A DNA stretch of 64,000 bases, from the IMG/VR virus record IMGVR_UViG_3300033072_001056, positions 3,710-67,709 of that record; one strand, 5' to 3'. A program made the translations under genes and the position numbers. The notes under the pieces were generated by a model. That model was not told the DNA's origin. It was given only the letters and a program-made list of their open reading frames with translations, and made no database searches. Of the stretch, positions 29,291 to 34,484 are shown one piece after another. Source of the stretch: a virus. Its lineage: Duplodnaviria > Caudoviricetes. How positions within the stretch are numbered: the stretch's first letter is position 1; every line of letters begins with the position of its first letter.

Positions 29291-31951
29291 ATGAAAAATT
29301 TATCAGCAGATATTGAGATTGCTATTAAAGACGCAATTTCCGGAATGAATTTAGACATTAACATCTTAGATGTTGATGATGACAAATTAGCTACATTGAT
29401 GTCTTCTCGATTAGAATCATTTTCAGCCACAAAGGAAATGATAAAGCTTTGGCAAGAATCACCTAACGCGCCAAGCCAAGCAAAACTTAGAAAAAACGCA
29501 GAGGAACTTATAAAATCGGGAGAAAATTCGATAGAAGTACTTCGTCAAGCGCTTAGAAAAAAAATAGCCTTTAGCGAATTAGACACAGAGAAGTACGGAA
29601 AGGCTATTAAGTCCAAGCCCGTAATTTTTAAGGCAATTAACGAGATTAATGCCGGAGTACTATCTTTGAAACTTCAGTTAGACGCAGACCAATTAGACTT
29701 CAAAGAACGCGAATTTCGACGTGGATTTCCCGAGAAATTTGCTTCGCAAGAATTTTTTCCCGCAAAAGATTATCACAAGGAATGGTATGACAAAGAAACC
29801 GATTCGGTAATGATTTGTCCGCTTGGCACAAAAGGGAAAGTGATTACTCTTGACGGATTAAACATTATGCTTCCGGCGCCACCAAAATCAAAAAAGAAAA
29901 TACTTTTCAGTAATTTACCAAAAGAAGAACAGTATTGGCGAAGAATCGAACCTCCTCAAGGGCTTACTCCGGAAAACGAAGATGTGTACTACGATTTTAT
30001 TATCGAGGAATTCCGTAAGCGTAGGGAGGGAGTTTGGTTTATGAATAACGGTGAACCGGTATATCTTACCCCGGCGCATTATATGGCGTTACAATGGGTG
30101 AAAATGTTAGATACCGGCTCGTTTATGGATTTCAGATATGCGCAAGCAGAAATGTTTTACTTCACGCGCGCGTGTGTTTTAGATCCGCGATGTTTAGGAG
30201 AGCTGTTTGTAAAGTCACGTCGTACCGGTTTTACCTATCAGATTATTTGCGAAATGATAAATGACGGAACCGGAACATCAAATGCCAAACTTGGTATGAT
30301 TTCAAAAACCGGTGATGATGCCCAAGAAGCATTTTTAAAAATGACTTATGGTATTCAAAACTTACCATTCTTTTTTATACCGGTAGTCAAAGGCAAAATT
30401 GACAGTAAAACAGAAGTTGAATTTGCCAAGCCTTCAGATTCTAGTAAGGTTGCCAAAAAGAAAAAAGACAATAGTACCGATGATTACTTGAATACTTTGA
30501 TGAATTGGAAAACGACTACTGAATCTGCTTATGACGGACAAAGAATGTATCGTTTGTTAATTGACGAGGCGTCAAAACCACTACCCCCATTTAATCTTGA
30601 AACTTATTGGGGACGTGTATCTCCAACCATTAATAACGGTGGTAGGATTGTAGGTAAAATATACGTTGGTTCAACGGTAAACCCTATGAAACTTGGTGGG
30701 GACAAATTCTTGAGAATGTACAAAGGCGCTATGGTTTCAAAAAGAGACAAGGACACTCAAAGAACACCAAACGGTCTGTACGCCTACTTCTTGCCAGCTC
30801 ATAAAAACATGGAATTATTTACCGATAAATACGGAGTTTGTCATACTGTTGTACAGCCGGGCGAATCGTTTACCAATGTTTACGGAACTGAAATATTTGA
30901 AGGGTCAATTCAATATTTGGAAAATATCCGTCGCCAAAAAAGAAAGCAATCGGACATTTTGTACAATGAGGAATTGCGCGCTAATCCAATGACTGTTGAA
31001 GAAGCATTTAGAGATGAAGCTAAGGCAAGTATGTTTAATCTCGAGAAGATAAATGACCAAATTGCTTATAATGATTCTCAAGATATTGAGCAAAAACAAC
31101 TTGTTCGCGGTAATTTCCAATGGAAAGACGGGCAAAAAGATTCTGTCGTAGAGTGGCATCCAAATCCAAGAGGTAGATTTTTACTAAGTTGGATTCCACC
31201 TAAAGAATTACAGAATAAATGGGAGATGAAAGTCAATATGTTTGGTGGAAGAAGCAAGCATCCGTCTAATGAAGATTTAGGATGTCTTGGTATTGACTCT
31301 TATGATATTAATTCGACAGTTGATTCTAAATTAGAAAACACAGAGAACGGAAGCGAATGGTCGGGAGGTTCTAAAGGAGCAATATCCGGAGTTACTTCTA
31401 AATTCACATTGAAAGATGCCCCGAGCAACTCTTTCTTTTTAGAGTATATTGCCCGACCGGAAACAGCCGAGATGTTTTTTGAAGATTGTTTAATGGCTTG
31501 TGTGTTTTATGGTATGCCGGCGCTTGTCGAAAATAACAAAGCACGATTGCTTTATCACTTTAAAAACAGAGGTTACCGAGGGTTTTGTCTTAGCCGATTT
31601 GACAAGCCTTCTAACAGATTAAGTCCTACCGAAAAAGAAATTGGCGGAATTCCTTCAAACTCCGCGGACGTTATTCAAATGCACTATACTGCAATTGAGG
31701 CTTATGTAGAAAAATACGTTGGGTATTATACTCAAGGAGATGATTTAGCTCCGGTAAGAGAAGAAAATGAAATTGGTTCAATGCCGTTTAACAGAACATT
31801 GCGCGATTGGGCAAGTTTTAATATTTCAGACAGAACAAAATCGGATATTTCAATTGCCTCGGGTTATGCCTTAATGGGTGTAAACAGACATAGTTACAAG
31901 TTTCAAAACGAAGCACCGGCGCCAATTGCTTTTAAAATTCGTTATAATTAG
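29291..31951 (+). CDS. terL: Terminase large subunit with an ~150 aa N-terminal extension
   Basis: Walker A KSRRTGFT, Walker B LLIDEASK, nuclease GIDSYD, C-terminal D..IASGYALM. Confidence 0.9.
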   Translation: MKNLSADIEIAIKDAISGMNLDINILDVDDDKLATLMSSRLESFSATKEMIKLWQESPNAPSQAKLRKNAEELIKSGENSIEVLRQALRKKIAFSELDTEKYGKAIKSKPVIFKAINEINAGVLSLKLQLDADQLDFKEREFRRGFPEKFASQEFFPAKDYHKEWYDKETDSVMICPLGTKGKVITLDGLNIMLPAPPKSKKKILFSNLPKEEQYWRRIEPPQGLTPENEDVYYDFIIEEFRKRREGVWFMNNGEPVYLTPAHYMALQWVKMLDTGSFMDFRYAQAEMFYFTRACVLDPRCLGELFVKSRRTGFTYQIICEMINDGTGTSNAKLGMISKTGDDAQEAFLKMTYGIQNLPFFFIPVVKGKIDSKTEVEFAKPSDSSKVAKKKKDNSTDDYLNTLMNWKTTTESAYDGQRMYRLLIDEASKPLPPFNLETYWGRVSPTINNGGRIVGKIYVGSTVNPMKLGGDKFLRMYKGAMVSKRDKDTQRTPNGLYAYFLPAHKNMELFTDKYGVCHTVVQPGESFTNVYGTEIFEGSIQYLENIRRQKRKQSDILYNEELRANPMTVEEAFRDEAKASMFNLEKINDQIAYNDSQDIEQKQLVRGNFQWKDGQKDSVVEWHPNPRGRFLLSWIPPKELQNKWEMKVNMFGGRSKHPSNEDLGCLGIDSYDINSTVDSKLENTENGSEWSGGSKGAISGVTSKFTLKDAPSNSFFLEYIARPETAEMFFEDCLMACVFYGMPALVENNKARLLYHFKNRGYRGFCLSRFDKPSNRLSPTEKEIGGIPSNSADVIQMHYTAIEAYVEKYVGYYTQGDDLAPVREENEIGSMPFNRTLRDWASFNISDRTKSDISIASGYALMGVNRHSYKFQNEAPAPIAFKIRYN

Positions 31952-31952
31952 T

Positions 31953-31983
31953 TTTGGTAGATTAAAAAATATTACTATATTTG
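31953..31983 (+). promoter_or_regulatory. Promoter of tRNA array 1
   Basis: TTTG-N19-TATATTTG. Confidence 0.85.
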
Positions 31984-32000
31984 CCTCAAATAAAGAAGAA

Positions 32001-32075
32001 ATGAAAAAAATGATTACCATAAAAACGATTGCAAGAGTTGGGGATAATTTTCCAAGCAAGGGGACTATGGTGTAA
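32001..32075 (+). CDS. Leader peptide 1 (MKKMITIKTIARVGDNFPSKGTMV)
   Basis: Short ORF between promoter and terminator; codons 2-16 match the array-1 tRNAs. Confidence 0.8.
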   Translation: MKKMITIKTIARVGDNFPSKGTMV

Positions 32076-32099
32076 ATTTTGTTTAGTTTTAACACATAA

Positions 32100-32137
32100 A
32101 AAATCCCCTAATAACATTAGGGGATTTTTATTTTTTT
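32100..32137 (+). terminator. Attenuator terminator 1
   Basis: ATCCCCTAAT-AAC-ATTAGGGGAT plus T-tract; left arm also pairs with leader AGGGGA (32059-64). Confidence 0.85.
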
Positions 32138-32211
32138 GGGGGCGTATGTTTCAAGGCTGACGACTTTGATTTGCAATCAGAGTGAGGTGATTTCGATTAT
32201 CACCGTCTCCA
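32138..32211 (+). tRNA. tRNA-Ala(UGC)
   Basis: Cloverleaf, loop TT-TGC-AA, G3:U70. Confidence 0.85.
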
Positions 32212-32226
32212 CAACAATAAGACAAT

Positions 32227-32256
32227 ATGAAAACAAGTAAAAAGTTTAAGAAGTAA
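32227..32256 (+). promoter_or_regulatory. Lys-rich minigene MKTSKKFKK upstream of tRNA-Lys
   Basis: 5 of 9 codons are Lys; followed by mutually exclusive hairpins at 32257-32292. Confidence 0.65.
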
Positions 32257-32288
32257 TCTGCTCTCAATGATTGGGAGTAGAAATCTAT

Positions 32289-32361
32289 TCCCTCTAAACA
32301 TTATTGGTGGATGTACCAAACTTTTAATTTGGGAAGCCGTGTTCGAATCACGGAGGGGGAA
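32289..32361 (+). tRNA. tRNA-Lys(UUU)
   Basis: Cloverleaf, loop CT-TTT-AA. Confidence 0.9.
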
Positions 32362-32366
32362 CGAAA

Positions 32367-32439
32367 CGGAATATAGCTCAATTGGTGGAGCAATCGCCTG
32401 ATACGCGAGAGGTTATAGGTTCAAGTCCTTTTATTCCGA
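32367..32439 (+). tRNA. tRNA-Ile(GAU)
   Basis: Cloverleaf, loop CT-GAT-AC. Confidence 0.92.
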
Positions 32440-32445
32440 CAAAAC

Positions 32446-32518
32446 GCGAGTATGGTGTCAATGGTTAACATTAGAGACTTCCAATCTCAAGATGTCAGTT
32501 CGATTCTGACTACTCGCT
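32446..32518 (+). tRNA. tRNA-Gly(UCC)
   Basis: Cloverleaf, loop CT-TCC-AA, U73. Confidence 0.92.
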
Positions 32519-32523
32519 CAAAA

Positions 32524-32596
32524 GGTCTATAGGTCAAATGGGTAAGATGTCCGGCTGTCGCCCGGTACGGAGAGGGTTCGAATCCCTCATAGACCG
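32524..32596 (+). tRNA. tRNA-Asp(GUC)
   Basis: Cloverleaf, loop CT-GTC-GC, G73. Confidence 0.9.
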
Positions 32597-32602
32597 CTAA
32601 AT

Positions 32603-32675
32603 GCTTCTGTAATTCAATTGGTAGAAACCCGCATTTGTAACGCGGAAGTTGCAGGTTCGACTCCTGTCAGAAGCT
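32603..32675 (+). tRNA. tRNA-Thr(UGU)
   Basis: Cloverleaf, loop TT-TGT-AA; A31-C39 mismatch. Confidence 0.88.
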
Positions 32676-32680
32676 CAATT

Positions 32681-32751
32681 GCCCAATTTGCATAACGGAA
32701 GTGCCGTTGTTTTACACGCAACAGCAGGGTGTTCGATTCACTCATTGGGTA
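32681..32751 (+). tRNA. tRNA-Val(UAC)
   Basis: Cloverleaf, loop TT-TAC-AC. Confidence 0.88.
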
Positions 32752-32756
32752 CAAAT

Positions 32757-32827
32757 GTCGGTATAGTTCAACGGAAGAATAAGACCCTTCTAAGGTTTTG
32801 ATGAGAGTTCGAGTCTCTCTACCGATT
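32757..32827 (+). tRNA. tRNA-Arg(UCU)
   Basis: Cloverleaf, loop CT-TCT-AA. Confidence 0.9.
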
Positions 32828-32832
32828 CAATA

Positions 32833-32909
32833 GGGCTTGTATCGCCTCTGACTCATAATCAGTAGAAAGCGTAATCGGTCACACGGCGGTTCAATTCCGT
32901 CCAAGCCCA
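32833..32909 (+). tRNA. Atypical CAU tRNA (Ile2-like) with the D-arm-like hairpin 3' of the anticodon arm
   Basis: Perfect acceptor and T arms; anticodon arm CTGA-CTCATAA-TCAG starts 9 nt after the acceptor strand. Confidence 0.7.
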
Positions 32910-32913
32910 CAAA

Positions 32914-32985
32914 GGAAGTATGGTGAAATGGTATCACGACAGACTGTTAATCTGTTAGTTTCAAGTTCGAGTCTTGATATTTCCG
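32914..32985 (+). tRNA. tRNA-Asn(GUU)
   Basis: Cloverleaf, loop CT-GTT-AA, G73. Confidence 0.92.
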
Positions 32986-32992
32986 CTAAAAA

Positions 32993-33023
32993 TTTGATAA
33001 TTTGAATTTTATTTTTACATTTG
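32993..33023 (+). promoter_or_regulatory. Promoter of tRNA-Met and array 2
   Basis: TTTG-N19-TACATTTG. Confidence 0.85.
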
Positions 33024-33026
33024 CAG

Positions 33027-33098
33027 GGCGTGAAGGTGTAATCGGTTGCATTGGAGTCTCATAAACTCTACGGGGTGGTTCGAATCCACGACACGCTA
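33027..33098 (+). tRNA. tRNA-Met(CAU), elongator type (Ile2 not excluded)
   Basis: Loop CT-CAT-AA, G2:C71 and C3:G70; lacks the initiator GGG/CCC stem. Confidence 0.75.
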
Positions 33099-33112
33099 CA
33101 AAGACATATATT

Positions 33113-33184
33113 ATGAGAAATTTAAGTTTATGTTCGTTTTATTGGTTGTCGTTTAAAAACGACACGGGATATAGCGCGCATTAA
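33113..33184 (+). CDS. Leader peptide 2 (MRNLSLCSFYWLSFKNDTGYSAH)
   Basis: Codons 4-14 match the array-2 tRNAs. Confidence 0.8.
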   Translation: MRNLSLCSFYWLSFKNDTGYSAH

Positions 33185-33210
33185 ATTTACCTTGTAATTA
33201 TTTAAAAGCT

Positions 33211-33239
33211 AATCCCGTTCGAAAGTTCGGGATTTTTTT
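33211..33239 (+). terminator. Attenuator terminator 2
   Basis: AATCCCG...CGGGATT plus T5; left arm pairs alternatively with leader CGGGATATAGC (33165-75). Confidence 0.85.
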
Positions 33240-33242
33240 ATT

Positions 33243-33326
33243 GGGAGTAACGCTCGAATTGGTTAGGCGCTTGACTGTAAATCAGGTAATCTGCATAGAT
33301 AGGTGGTTCGAATCCATCTGCTCCCA
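33243..33326 (+). tRNA. tRNA-Tyr(GUA)
   Basis: Loop CT-GTA-AA, long variable arm. Confidence 0.9.
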
Positions 33327-33332
33327 CAAAAT

Positions 33333-33406
33333 AGCTGTATGGCGGAACGGTAGACGCATCAGACTTAAAATCTGTACAACTGTGGGTTCGACTCCCACTA
33401 CAGCCA
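33333..33406 (+). tRNA. tRNA-Leu(UAA) lacking the long variable arm
   Basis: Loop CT-TAA-AA; 6-nt variable region; A1-C72 mismatch. Confidence 0.85.
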
Positions 33407-33414
33407 CAAAAAAA

Positions 33415-33501
33415 GGAGGTATAACCCAAGTTGGTCTAAGGGGCGCTGTCTTGAAAACAGTTGGTCGTAATGGCGTGTAAGTTCGAGTCTTACTGCCTCC
33501 G
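33415..33501 (+). tRNA. tRNA-Ser(UGA)
   Basis: Loop CT-TGA-AA, long variable arm, G73. Confidence 0.92.
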
Positions 33502-33507
33502 CAAAAT

Positions 33508-33591
33508 GGAGAGTAAACTAATCAGGTGGTTAGACTTGTTTGCTAAACAATGGGTGGGTAAAACCTTGGGAATCGTGTTCTCTGCTCTCCG
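33508..33591 (+). tRNA. tRNA-Ser(GCU)
   Basis: Loop TT-GCT-AA, long variable arm, non-canonical T-loop ATCGTGT. Confidence 0.85.
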
Positions 33592-33600
33592 CTATAAATT

Positions 33601-33671
33601 GCTTCTCAGCGTAGGTTGTGCCAATCGGTCTCCAAAACCGTATTGTAAAGGTTCGAATCCTTTGAGTCGCG
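33601..33671 (+). tRNA. tRNA-Trp(CCA), degenerate acceptor and short D arm
   Basis: Loop CT-CCA-AA, canonical T arm, two acceptor mismatches. Confidence 0.72.
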
Positions 33672-33676
33672 CAAAA

Positions 33677-33749
33677 GGAAATTTGGCAGATAAGGTTATT
33701 GCGCTCGACTGAAAATCGAGAGGGCTCGGATCGTTACCGAGAATTTCCA
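33677..33749 (+). tRNA. tRNA-Phe(GAA)
   Basis: Loop CT-GAA-AA; T-loop ATCGTTA. Confidence 0.88.
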
Positions 33750-33754
33750 CAAAC

Positions 33755-33825
33755 GACAAGAAGCCTGACGGAGAAGGGTGCGGTCTGCAAAACCAAACAT
33801 CGCGGTTCGATTCCGCGTCTTGTCT
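33755..33825 (+). tRNA. tRNA-Cys(GCA)
   Basis: Loop CT-GCA-AA, U73. Confidence 0.88.
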
Positions 33826-33833
33826 CAAATTAG

Positions 33834-33905
33834 AACGCAATGCAAGATTCGAACTTGCGTCTTTTGGTTCGTAGCCAAAGATTTTTCCAATTAAACTAAT
33901 CGCGC
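33834..33905 (-). tRNA. tRNA-Arg(ACG)
   Basis: Loop CT-ACG-AA on the minus strand. Confidence 0.9.
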
Positions 33906-33910
33906 ATTTG

Positions 33911-33991
33911 TACGGACGAGAGGACTTGAACCTCCAAAGCTAACGGGTCTAAACCGCCAAGATGTGCCATTCTCAATAAAGCCACGTCCGC
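33911..33991 (-). tRNA. Atypical tRNA-Leu(UAG): enlarged D region, no long variable arm
   Basis: Acceptor and T arms intact; loop TT-TAG-AC; ~26-nt D region. Confidence 0.72.
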
Positions 33992-33996
33992 AATTG

Positions 33997-34068
33997 GGTG
34001 TTTTCGGGTCTCGAACCCTGTTCTCCGGATTCACAGTCCGGCACTTTACCTGTTAAGCTAAAAACACC
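33997..34068 (-). tRNA. tRNA-His(GUG)
   Basis: Loop CT-GTG-AA; encoded G-1:C73. Confidence 0.88.
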
Positions 34069-34074
34069 ATATAG

Positions 34075-34147
34075 TTTCTTTGTCAAGACTCGAACTTGAA
34101 CAACGAGAGTCAAAGTCTCGTATGCTAACCAATTACATCACAAAGAA
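34075..34147 (-). tRNA. tRNA-Gln(UUG)
   Basis: Loop CT-TTG-AC; U1:A72. Confidence 0.9.
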
Positions 34148-34153
34148 TTTTAG

Positions 34154-34225
34154 TAACGCATACGGGATTCGAACCCGTGATTAGAAATAGAAAGTTTCTT
34201 GTGCTGACCACTACACTAATGCGTC
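34154..34225 (-). tRNA. tRNA-Glu(UUC)
   Basis: Loop CT-TTC-TA (U at position 37). Confidence 0.88.
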
Positions 34226-34230
34226 TTTTG

Positions 34231-34307
34231 TCTAGTTGGCAGGAATCGAACCTGCGTAACTCCCGCTTCCAAGGCGGGCGAGTATATCCATCTGCTCCGA
34301 CAACTAG
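34231..34307 (-). tRNA. tRNA-Pro(UGG)
   Basis: Loop CT-TGG-AA; C1:G72, A73. Confidence 0.9.
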
Positions 34308-34311
34308 AAAT

Positions 34312-34340
34312 AAAAAAAGCCTCCCAATTACGGAAGGCTT
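34312..34340 (-). terminator. Attenuator terminator 3
   Basis: AAGCCTTCCG-TAAT-TGGGAGGCTT plus T-tract; left arm pairs alternatively with leader CGGGAGG (34379-85). Confidence 0.85.
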
Positions 34341-34365
34341 TAGCTAATATATTTTATTTACATAT

Positions 34366-34440
34366 TTACACGCTTGTTCCTCCCGATAAAATATCCGGCT
34401 CTTGAAGACGTTGTTCAGTATGTAATTTTAATCTTTTCAT
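34366..34440 (-). CDS. Leader peptide 3 (MKRLKLHTEQRLQEPDILSGGTSV)
   Basis: Codons 7-15 match the array-3 tRNAs; near-leaderless ATG. Confidence 0.8.
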   Translation of the reverse strand: MKRLKLHTEQRLQEPDILSGGTSV

Positions 34441-34444
34441 ATTG

Positions 34445-34474
34445 CAAATATATGAATACTTTTTAAGTCTGCAA
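34445..34474 (-). promoter_or_regulatory. Promoter of tRNA array 3
   Basis: TTG-N19-TATATTTG on the minus strand. Confidence 0.85.
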
Positions 34475-34484
34475 GTATTTATAG

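Follow-up and report, generated by a model that had tools for sequence, protein, structure and literature searches.

A mini-gene and two alternative hairpins preceding a phage tRNA-Lys(UUU) gene: a candidate attenuator-like switch of tRNA maturation

Introduction

Leader-peptide attenuators, such as those known as trpL, hisL, pheL and ilv, combine a short open reading frame (ORF), the codons of which are tied to the product under regulation, with four RNA segments that pair either as 1:2 and 3:4 or, to the exclusion of both, as 2:3. The position of the ribosome decides which fold is adopted, and the output is the termination of transcription. The translational attenuators of ermC and cat/cmlA are post-transcriptional: a ribosome on segment 1, held there by a drug-dependent arrest peptide, frees segment 2 for segment 3, and segment 4 is exposed, which uncovers a ribosome-binding site. 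In T-box riboswitches, too, alternative RNA helices link expression to the status of a specific tRNA, in this case by direct binding of uncharged tRNA and in control of aminoacyl-tRNA synthetase or amino-acid genes.

Very short ORFs are linked to tRNAs in other ways as well. The bar mini-genes of phage lambda (two to three codons with a strong Shine-Dalgarno [SD] sequence) act through tRNA pools, by drop-off of peptidyl-tRNA, and small basic ORFs occur in tRNA operons, as in the tyrT operon of Escherichia coli, where tpr is co-transcribed with tRNA genes and lies downstream of the tRNAs in repeat units. Phage tRNA genes themselves are usually taken to be constitutively expressed cargo. One of the tRNAs attacked by bacterial defences is tRNA-Lys(UUU), which is cleaved by the nuclease PrrC. 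PARIS AriB likewise targets tRNA-Lys in E. coli, and the tRNA-Lys of phage T5 rescues (PMC11464382).

Here, we describe a module that lies directly upstream of a tRNA-Lys(UUU) gene in the tRNA array of a phage and that consists of a mini-gene, a hairpin (A) adjoining its stop codon and an alternative hairpin (B) that takes in the first bases of the tRNA. We consider the odds a little short of even that this module represents ribosome-mediated attenuation with a new output, tRNA maturation; the case is built on predicted folds and on their comparison among relatives. Literature searches for leader-peptide or mini-gene control of tRNA genes yielded no relevant account, and we know of no earlier case of a tRNA that is feedback-controlled by its own decoding activity. 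Should the reading be correct, attenuation would have RNA maturation as an output in place of termination or the exposure of a ribosome-binding site, and this tRNA would be the first known to us that is under feedback from its own decoding. Because tRNA-Lys(UUU) is an anticodon-nuclease target, it would then be possible to test directly whether a phage senses tRNA depletion and supplies a replacement tRNA. With about 65 nt plus the tRNA, the element is small and could be transferred to reporter systems.

The window and its relatives

The window, i.e. the whole stretch of DNA that was analysed (64,000 nt), makes up nearly all of a virus record of 67.7 kb in IMG/VR and belongs to a phage; near-identical DNA is present in freshwater, aquatic and wastewater metagenomes. 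Twenty related viral loci were retrieved by way of a neighbouring 886-aa protein, and additional copies of this type of tRNA-Lys were retrieved with search patterns based on the body of tRNA-Lys, independently of the hairpin and the ORF. Collections of viruses, metagenomes and MAGs together yielded at least 10 distinct sequences with the module. Of these ten, about six are closely related to one another, and the lineages, of which there are about four, share ancestry. The first lineage is the window group, consisting of the window, L024, L007, L025, L146 and L179, the relatives in which encode the peptides MKTSKKYKR, MKTIKKYKR and MISTSKKYKR. The second is L083, which is identical to L125 (MKTIIKNRQ), the third is L177 (MKKEFKKYKQI), and the fourth comprises L092 (MKTKRKHIKK) and L171 (MKAKRKHIKK).

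Every copy of tRNA-Lys found with an exact 19-mer of its anticodon arm carries the module (8 distinct sequences among the matches listed). A looser pattern also recovered related tRNA-Lys genes without the module, in L173 and L176, where they lie directly behind a terminator, and in L174, where the gene lies behind another tRNA. Although frequent in this family of tRNA-Lys genes, the module is therefore dispensable. Since L083 lacks tRNA-Ala, the upstream neighbour in the window, and L024 has a tRNA-Ala truncated at the anticodon loop, and both retain the module, the module travels with tRNA-Lys and not with tRNA-Ala.

Wider searches were less productive. Megablast of the cassette that contains the array against cultured and deposited phages gave no match, and distant blastn gave generic tRNA-Ile matches and one tRNA-Ala-like match, in an uncultured 635-kb phage, in which the next feature is an ordinary long ORF and not the module. 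A hairpin-based pattern had 41 matches in viral contigs, all of them due to chance except for the known relatives, and a pattern based on the first leader ORF of the array (Table 1) revealed no new loci. Pfam assigned no families to five flanking proteins.

Genomic setting

Table 1. Window coordinates of the module, its neighbours and the cassette in which they lie
Feature	Position	Strand	Remarks
tRNA cassette	31951-34478		Leader ORFs, terminators and ~23 tRNA genes; roughly 2.5 kb
Promoter box (TAnnTTTG)	31976-31983	+	Sole + strand box within 31976-33016
First leader ORF and terminator	31992-32137		24-codon ORF, then strong terminator, directly before tRNA-Ala
Intrinsic terminator	32099-32137	+	14-bp stem, then T run; directly 5' of tRNA-Ala
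tRNA array	32138-34307		18 tRNA genes (ARAGORN)
tRNA-Ala(UGC)	32138-32212	+	G3:U70; upstream neighbour of the module (ARAGORN)
A-rich mini-gene leader	32213-32226	+	Without SD sequence
Mini-gene	32227-32256	+	ATG, 8 sense codons (5 Lys), TAA (32254-32256); peptide MKTSKKFKK
Hairpin A (segments 1 and 2)	32257-32281	+	32257-32267 with 32271-32281; starts at the first base after the stop codon
Hairpin B (segments 2 and 3)	32273-32292	+	32273-32280 with 32285-32292 (last 4 leader bases and tRNA-Lys bases 1-4)
tRNA-Lys(UUU)	32289-32362	+	ARAGORN; Rfam tRNA model, 46.8 bits
tRNA-Lys acceptor stem	32289-32295 with 32354-32360		
Additional tRNA-like genes (Rfam)	32833-32909, 33243-33326, 33601-33671, 33755-33825, 33911-33991 (- strand)		Occupy most of the array's long gaps
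Second leader ORF and terminator	33113-33239		Precedes the Leu, Ser, Phe, Tyr, Cys, Trp tRNA block

Most tRNA genes of the array are spaced by 4-5 nt, and a gap of 76 nt separates tRNA-Ala from tRNA-Lys(UUU), the latter being placed by both ARAGORN and Rfam where the initial annotation had put it. The Rfam tRNA model adds five tRNA-like genes (24-37 bits) that ARAGORN missed. The D region of tRNA-Ala(UGC) is odd, and its best Rfam model after clan competition is that of tmRNA (20.7 bits), not that of tRNA. The gap being tRNA-sized, the spacer could on these grounds be regarded as a decayed tRNA or as the mRNA-like part of a tmRNA-like pair with tRNA-Ala. Either idea is highly implausible, and both were rejected on the covariance-model search and on L083: RF00005 has no match within 32213-32288 at E-values up to 1 although the same search found the five cryptic tRNAs elsewhere; the tmRNA score is far below the gathering threshold of 47 bits and covers tRNA-Ala only; the module of L083 is present without tRNA-Ala; and the ATG is conserved and the would-be tag is basic, not Ala-rich.

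The array would be transcribed by read-through from the promoter box listed in Table 1, and the terminator in front of tRNA-Ala is context only. This terminator was the single terminator-like site (32099-32129) in a scan of 31900-32450. TAnnTTTG boxes are over-represented in the window (123 vs ~94 expected). An internal promoter in the spacer was rejected because the + strand has no such box within 31984-33015.

Two further ORFs in the cassette resemble leader peptides. The first, conserved in L007, L025, L146 and L083, has the core IKTIARVGDN, which is made up of the amino acids of the downstream tRNAs (Lys, Ile, Thr, Ala, Arg, Val, Gly, Asp and Asn). The second, conserved in L024, L025, L146 and L083, is rich in Phe, Ser, Cys, Leu, Tyr and Trp. 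Both array-level leader ORFs are conserved and match, in their amino acids, the tRNAs downstream, so that codon sensing would fit the cassette.

Alternative hairpins

Hairpin A was confirmed directly after the stop codon, as initially annotated. It has 11 bp (including two G-U pairs), a 3-nt loop and a folding energy of -13.5 kcal/mol, and its equivalent is present in all homologues. The complementarity of its 3' arm to 32284-32292, a stretch that includes bases 1-4 of tRNA-Lys, is equally real, but sterically, the hairpin B first drawn from it (9 bp with a 2-nt loop) could not form; when folded, B has 8 bp, a 4-nt loop and -11.5 kcal/mol instead. A role of hairpin A as a terminator was rejected, as it has no T run and was not flagged by the terminator scan.

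Free RNA from the stop codon to the 3' end of the tRNA has a minimum-free-energy structure that consists of hairpin A and a normal cloverleaf in all nine sequences folded. When the first 14 nt from the stop codon are held single-stranded, the minimum in the same nine sequences becomes hairpin B and the acceptor stem is lost. In ensembles calculated for eight sequences, masking of at least 8 nt lowers the probability that acceptor bases 2-5 are paired with the 3' strand of the stem from 0.73-1.00 to 0.00-0.36. These 8 nt are the stop codon plus 5 nt, which according to published footprints is the least that a terminating ribosome unwinds. The ensembles of two further sequences show the same loss of the acceptor stem upon masking. 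Spacers of three lineages were also shuffled, and in each lineage the switch behaviour was reproduced by at most 1 of 300 shuffles and an equally stable hairpin by none of 300. The three-way pairing module is not due to chance.

The pairing is also specific to the adjoining tRNA. The 3' arm of hairpin A binds the 5' region of its own tRNA-Lys with -8 to -14 kcal/mol, and of 120 other tRNA 5' regions taken from these arrays, none binds it as well (for L083, 1 of the 120 does). The arm of L092 pairs with its own target at -12.5 kcal/mol and with the targets of other lineages at only -5.3 to -7.7 kcal/mol; because it fits only its own target, arm and target have changed together at least once. 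The pairing of helix A survives G-U to A-U and C-G to U-G changes and one double change from U-A to G-C. Column-wise covariation in a MAFFT alignment was not significant, with just one double change in A, none in B and shuffles performing equally; the sequences are few, and the register of the helix differs from lineage to lineage. Support for a switch is thus thermodynamic and comparative, obtained by folding each sequence separately with a model of RNA energies, and is not classical covariation.

The initial annotation held that a ribosome at the stop codon causes hairpin B to form. The predicted fold does flip upon masking in every sequence tested, but B would be at best a transient kinetic block, because A with the cloverleaf is lower in energy by 1-8 kcal/mol. 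Precisely, A with the cloverleaf is the global minimum and the best folds containing B lie 1.3-7.6 kcal/mol above it in secondary-structure energies; tRNA tertiary structure would further favour the native fold. In the window group, the best of these folds add a pairing of the 5' arm of A with the 3' acceptor strand of the tRNA. Hairpin B can therefore only be kinetic, co-transcriptional or maintained by the ribosome, and is possibly short-lived.

The mini-gene

The Lys-rich mini-gene was confirmed with the start and stop codons first assigned to it, Lys being specified by five of the eight sense codons after the ATG. An ORF of 9-11 codons that begins with ATG and ends with TAA is kept in all ten distinct homologous sequences, the other two frames being closed. 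Its length is 30, 33 or 36 nt, so that every change in length is a multiple of three, and its stop codon lies 0-2 nt from hairpin A in all ten, although the interior of the ORF diverges. The differences include third-position changes (AAA/AAG, TAT/TAC and ACA/ACT) and conservative ones (Phe/Tyr and Lys/Arg). Upstream of the ATG, length and sequence vary freely, with A-richness being retained.

These properties of the ORF bear on the possibility of a bistable leader made of RNA only, which would serve the processing of the pre-tRNA without any ribosome, an A-rich spacer having given rise to the ORF as a by-product that was then inherited; hairpins A and B might order the cuts of RNase P, E or Z, shield the released spacer from 3' exonucleases or provide a folding checkpoint. 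Such a leader would be in keeping with the conservation of A and B, which is the strongest signal at the locus, and with the L092/L171 lineage, in which B-containing folds come within 1.3-1.9 kcal/mol of the minimum without a ribosome. Nor is an open frame of 8-10 codons improbable, its chance in this composition being 0.4-0.5 per lineage. It would not account for an ATG and a TAA that are invariant in 10 of 10 sequences, for length steps of three, for a stop codon that stays beside the hairpin while the interior diverges, or for the third-position and conservative codon changes next to a freely varying region 5' of the ATG, and we regard it as unlikely.

Judged from these sequence features, the mini-gene is likely translated. 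The lack of an SD sequence does not speak against translation, since SD sequences are all but absent from the phage's own genes (found in 1 of 43), whose upstream regions, like that of the mini-gene, are rich in A; in these genes, the A-rich positions are -11 to -13 and -3. Together with the TAnnTTTG boxes, SD-less genes with A-rich upstream regions are what we take to be the expression style of Bacteroidota. A programmed -1 frameshift on AAAAAG was rejected, as the corresponding sequence is AAGAAG in L007 and L025 and the hairpin is too far downstream.

The encoded peptides are all basic, and a start with MK and a core of KKY/F-K are common to two lineages. It might therefore be supposed that the peptide or its translation is the point of the module, be it as a basic micro-peptide of 9-11 residues or as a bar-like mini-gene that ties up host tRNA via peptidyl-tRNA drop-off, hairpin A being merely a 3' stabiliser of a tiny mRNA; tyrT-tpr and the bar mini-genes would be the precedents. 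We deem this very improbable. Between lineages the peptide sequence is poorly conserved, and the bar mini-genes have two to three codons and a strong SD sequence, whereas the mini-gene here has none. The specific match of the 3' arm to the leader and acceptor of tRNA-Lys, and the co-variation seen in L092/L171, would also be left unexplained.

Lys content

Lys accounts for 2-5 of the 8-10 sense codons, which in most sequences is about 1.3-2 times the expectation from composition. In L083, it accounts for 2 of 8, among codons for Thr, Ile, Asn, Arg and Gln, which is about the expectation and no enrichment. The Lys specificity asserted in the initial annotation is weak, and it is the weakest link of the switch reading.

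A mechanism that is coupled to translation but not to Lys has also to be considered, in which any ribosome that passes the mini-gene would transiently open hairpin A. What is sensed would in that case be general translation capacity or the availability of ribosomes, or else the module would simply time the folding of tRNA-Lys relative to transcription, and the Lys codons would reflect the A-rich, unstructured sequence needed for SD-less initiation. The structural evidence for this is identical to that for a Lys-dependent switch, Lys content is near the expectation from composition (with only two Lys in L083), and this phage uses A-rich upstream regions as its initiation signal. A need for A-richness would not, however, explain why AAN codons in the ORFs that represent the lineages comprise 21 AAR versus 1 AAY, why every sequence keeps a Lys codon four or five positions before the stop codon and a basic residue at -2, or why the regulated gene is always tRNA-Lys; on balance, we consider a mechanism indifferent to Lys unlikely.

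Proposed mechanism

The reading that we favour, with a probability of roughly 0.45, is that of an attenuator-like 1:2 / 2:3 / 3:4 switch in which the acceptor stem of the tRNA takes the place of the terminator and in which the maturation of tRNA-Lys is controlled in a decoding-dependent manner. Four elements of this model are inferred: that the ORF is translated, when this happens with respect to transcription, how RNase P is affected and that Lys is the sensed codon. The transcript would contain, in order, tRNA-Ala, the short A-rich leader, the Lys/Arg-rich mini-gene of 9-11 codons, hairpin A (1:2) and tRNA-Lys. Segment 3 would be formed by the leader and the 5' acceptor strand of tRNA-Lys and segment 4 by its 3' acceptor strand.

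In the absence of a ribosome, hairpin A would form and tRNA-Lys would take up its normal fold as a substrate for RNase P. If a ribosome stalls at the Lys codons four to five positions before the stop codon, A would, going by known ribosome footprints, stay intact and tRNA-Lys native. By contrast, a ribosome at the TAA would unwind segment 1, so that segment 2 could pair with segment 3 to form hairpin B, and there would be no acceptor stem while tRNA-Lys is being made. Efficient decoding of Lys codons would delay or lower the maturation of tRNA-Lys, and poor decoding would release it, the net effect being a negative-feedback gate for one tRNA within a multi-tRNA array. Negative feedback is the reading that needs the fewest assumptions, and it is in line with the initial annotation. 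Going by the modelled folds, ribosome traffic probably controls how much tRNA-Lys matures. That a phage would withhold its own tRNA-Lys offers no obvious benefit, and this counts against the switch reading.

A more far-reaching version is possible but doubtful. According to it, tRNA-Lys would regulate its own maturation via the ribosome, its acceptor stem being helix 3:4 of an attenuator with a leader composed mostly of Lys codons, and would form, together with the codon-matched leader peptides of the array, a two-tier, codon-resolved sensor that replaces a failing tRNA, for instance after attack by an anticodon nuclease that targets tRNA-Lys.

Comparison with described systems

Among the systems outlined above, the leader-peptide attenuators come closest. 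The locus has a short ORF with codons that may be tied to the regulated product, and its predicted folds comprise four segments with the mutually exclusive helices 1:2 / 3:4 and 2:3, between which the position of the ribosome would decide. Unlike in attenuators, helix 3:4 is the acceptor stem of tRNA-Lys, which is followed by no U tract and is not a terminator, and the codons of the ORF do not overlap segment 1, as the last base of the ORF is 32256 and segment 1 begins with the next one, 32257. Because the ORF ends just before segment 1, a stalled ribosome would favour 1:2 and 3:4, which is the ON state, and only a terminating ribosome would mask segment 1. The proposed output also differs, being the folding and maturation of an RNA and not the termination of transcription, and the regulated gene is that of a tRNA.

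With ermC and cat/cmlA, the locus would share post-transcriptional action and the freeing of segment 2 by a ribosome on segment 1. In those systems, however, drug-dependent arrest peptides uncover a ribosome-binding site, whereas here the 3' acceptor strand of a tRNA would be left unpaired; no ribosome-binding site of a next gene is uncovered, the next gene being a tRNA gene and the phage not being SD-using. In the mini-gene peptides, no known arrest motif can be recognised by eye. As in T-box riboswitches, the status of a specific tRNA would be coupled to expression through alternative helices, but sensing here would proceed via the ribosome and not by direct binding of uncharged tRNA. Neither specifier nor T-box motifs are present at the module, and Rfam found no T-box.

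The bar mini-genes are likewise very short phage ORFs with an effect through tRNA pools, but the ORF described here has 9-11 codons and no SD sequence and is joined to a conserved pair of hairpins by a tRNA gene. The tpr ORF resembles the mini-gene in being short, basic and co-transcribed with tRNA genes; unlike the mini-gene, it has no known switch and is not adjacent to a hairpin with complementarity to a tRNA. As with PrrC and in the PARIS AriB/T5 case (PMC11464382), the phage carries its own copy of tRNA-Lys(UUU), the isoacceptor depleted by these defences. Those cases concern nuclease-resistant tRNA variants, with no regulation of phage tRNAs described, and the initial annotation of this tRNA as an established nuclease target holds, through PARIS, for E. 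coli only.

Cassette mobility and sequence variants

In L003, a phage that is otherwise 97% identical, the entire cassette is absent and replaced by 16 nt, and in L007 it is inverted relative to the same flanking gene. Going by these sequence comparisons, the cassette behaves as a mobile or indel module.

In L024 (9972-10030, - strand), a protein-coding frame enters the anticodon loop of tRNA-Ala and replaces the 5' half of this tRNA. The first leader ORF and its terminator are absent, and the mini-gene, the hairpin and tRNA-Lys are intact. Either recombination or a chimeric assembly could account for this joint. L180 (3880-3945) has a related tRNA-Lys with a different acceptor stem, and a 6-nt stretch upstream of it, situated within an ATG-started frame that runs into the tRNA, is complementary to the 5' acceptor strand. 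This may be a different anti-acceptor arrangement, or chance.

Near-identical DNA contigs from four metagenome runs contain three single-base variants, and no informative RNA coverage was obtained from these runs. Among the changes seen in metagenome contigs, 32280 G>A, present in one contig of low depth, would weaken a single pair in each of the two hairpins, and 32316 C>T lies in the anticodon stem of tRNA-Lys and corresponds to the state found in L025.
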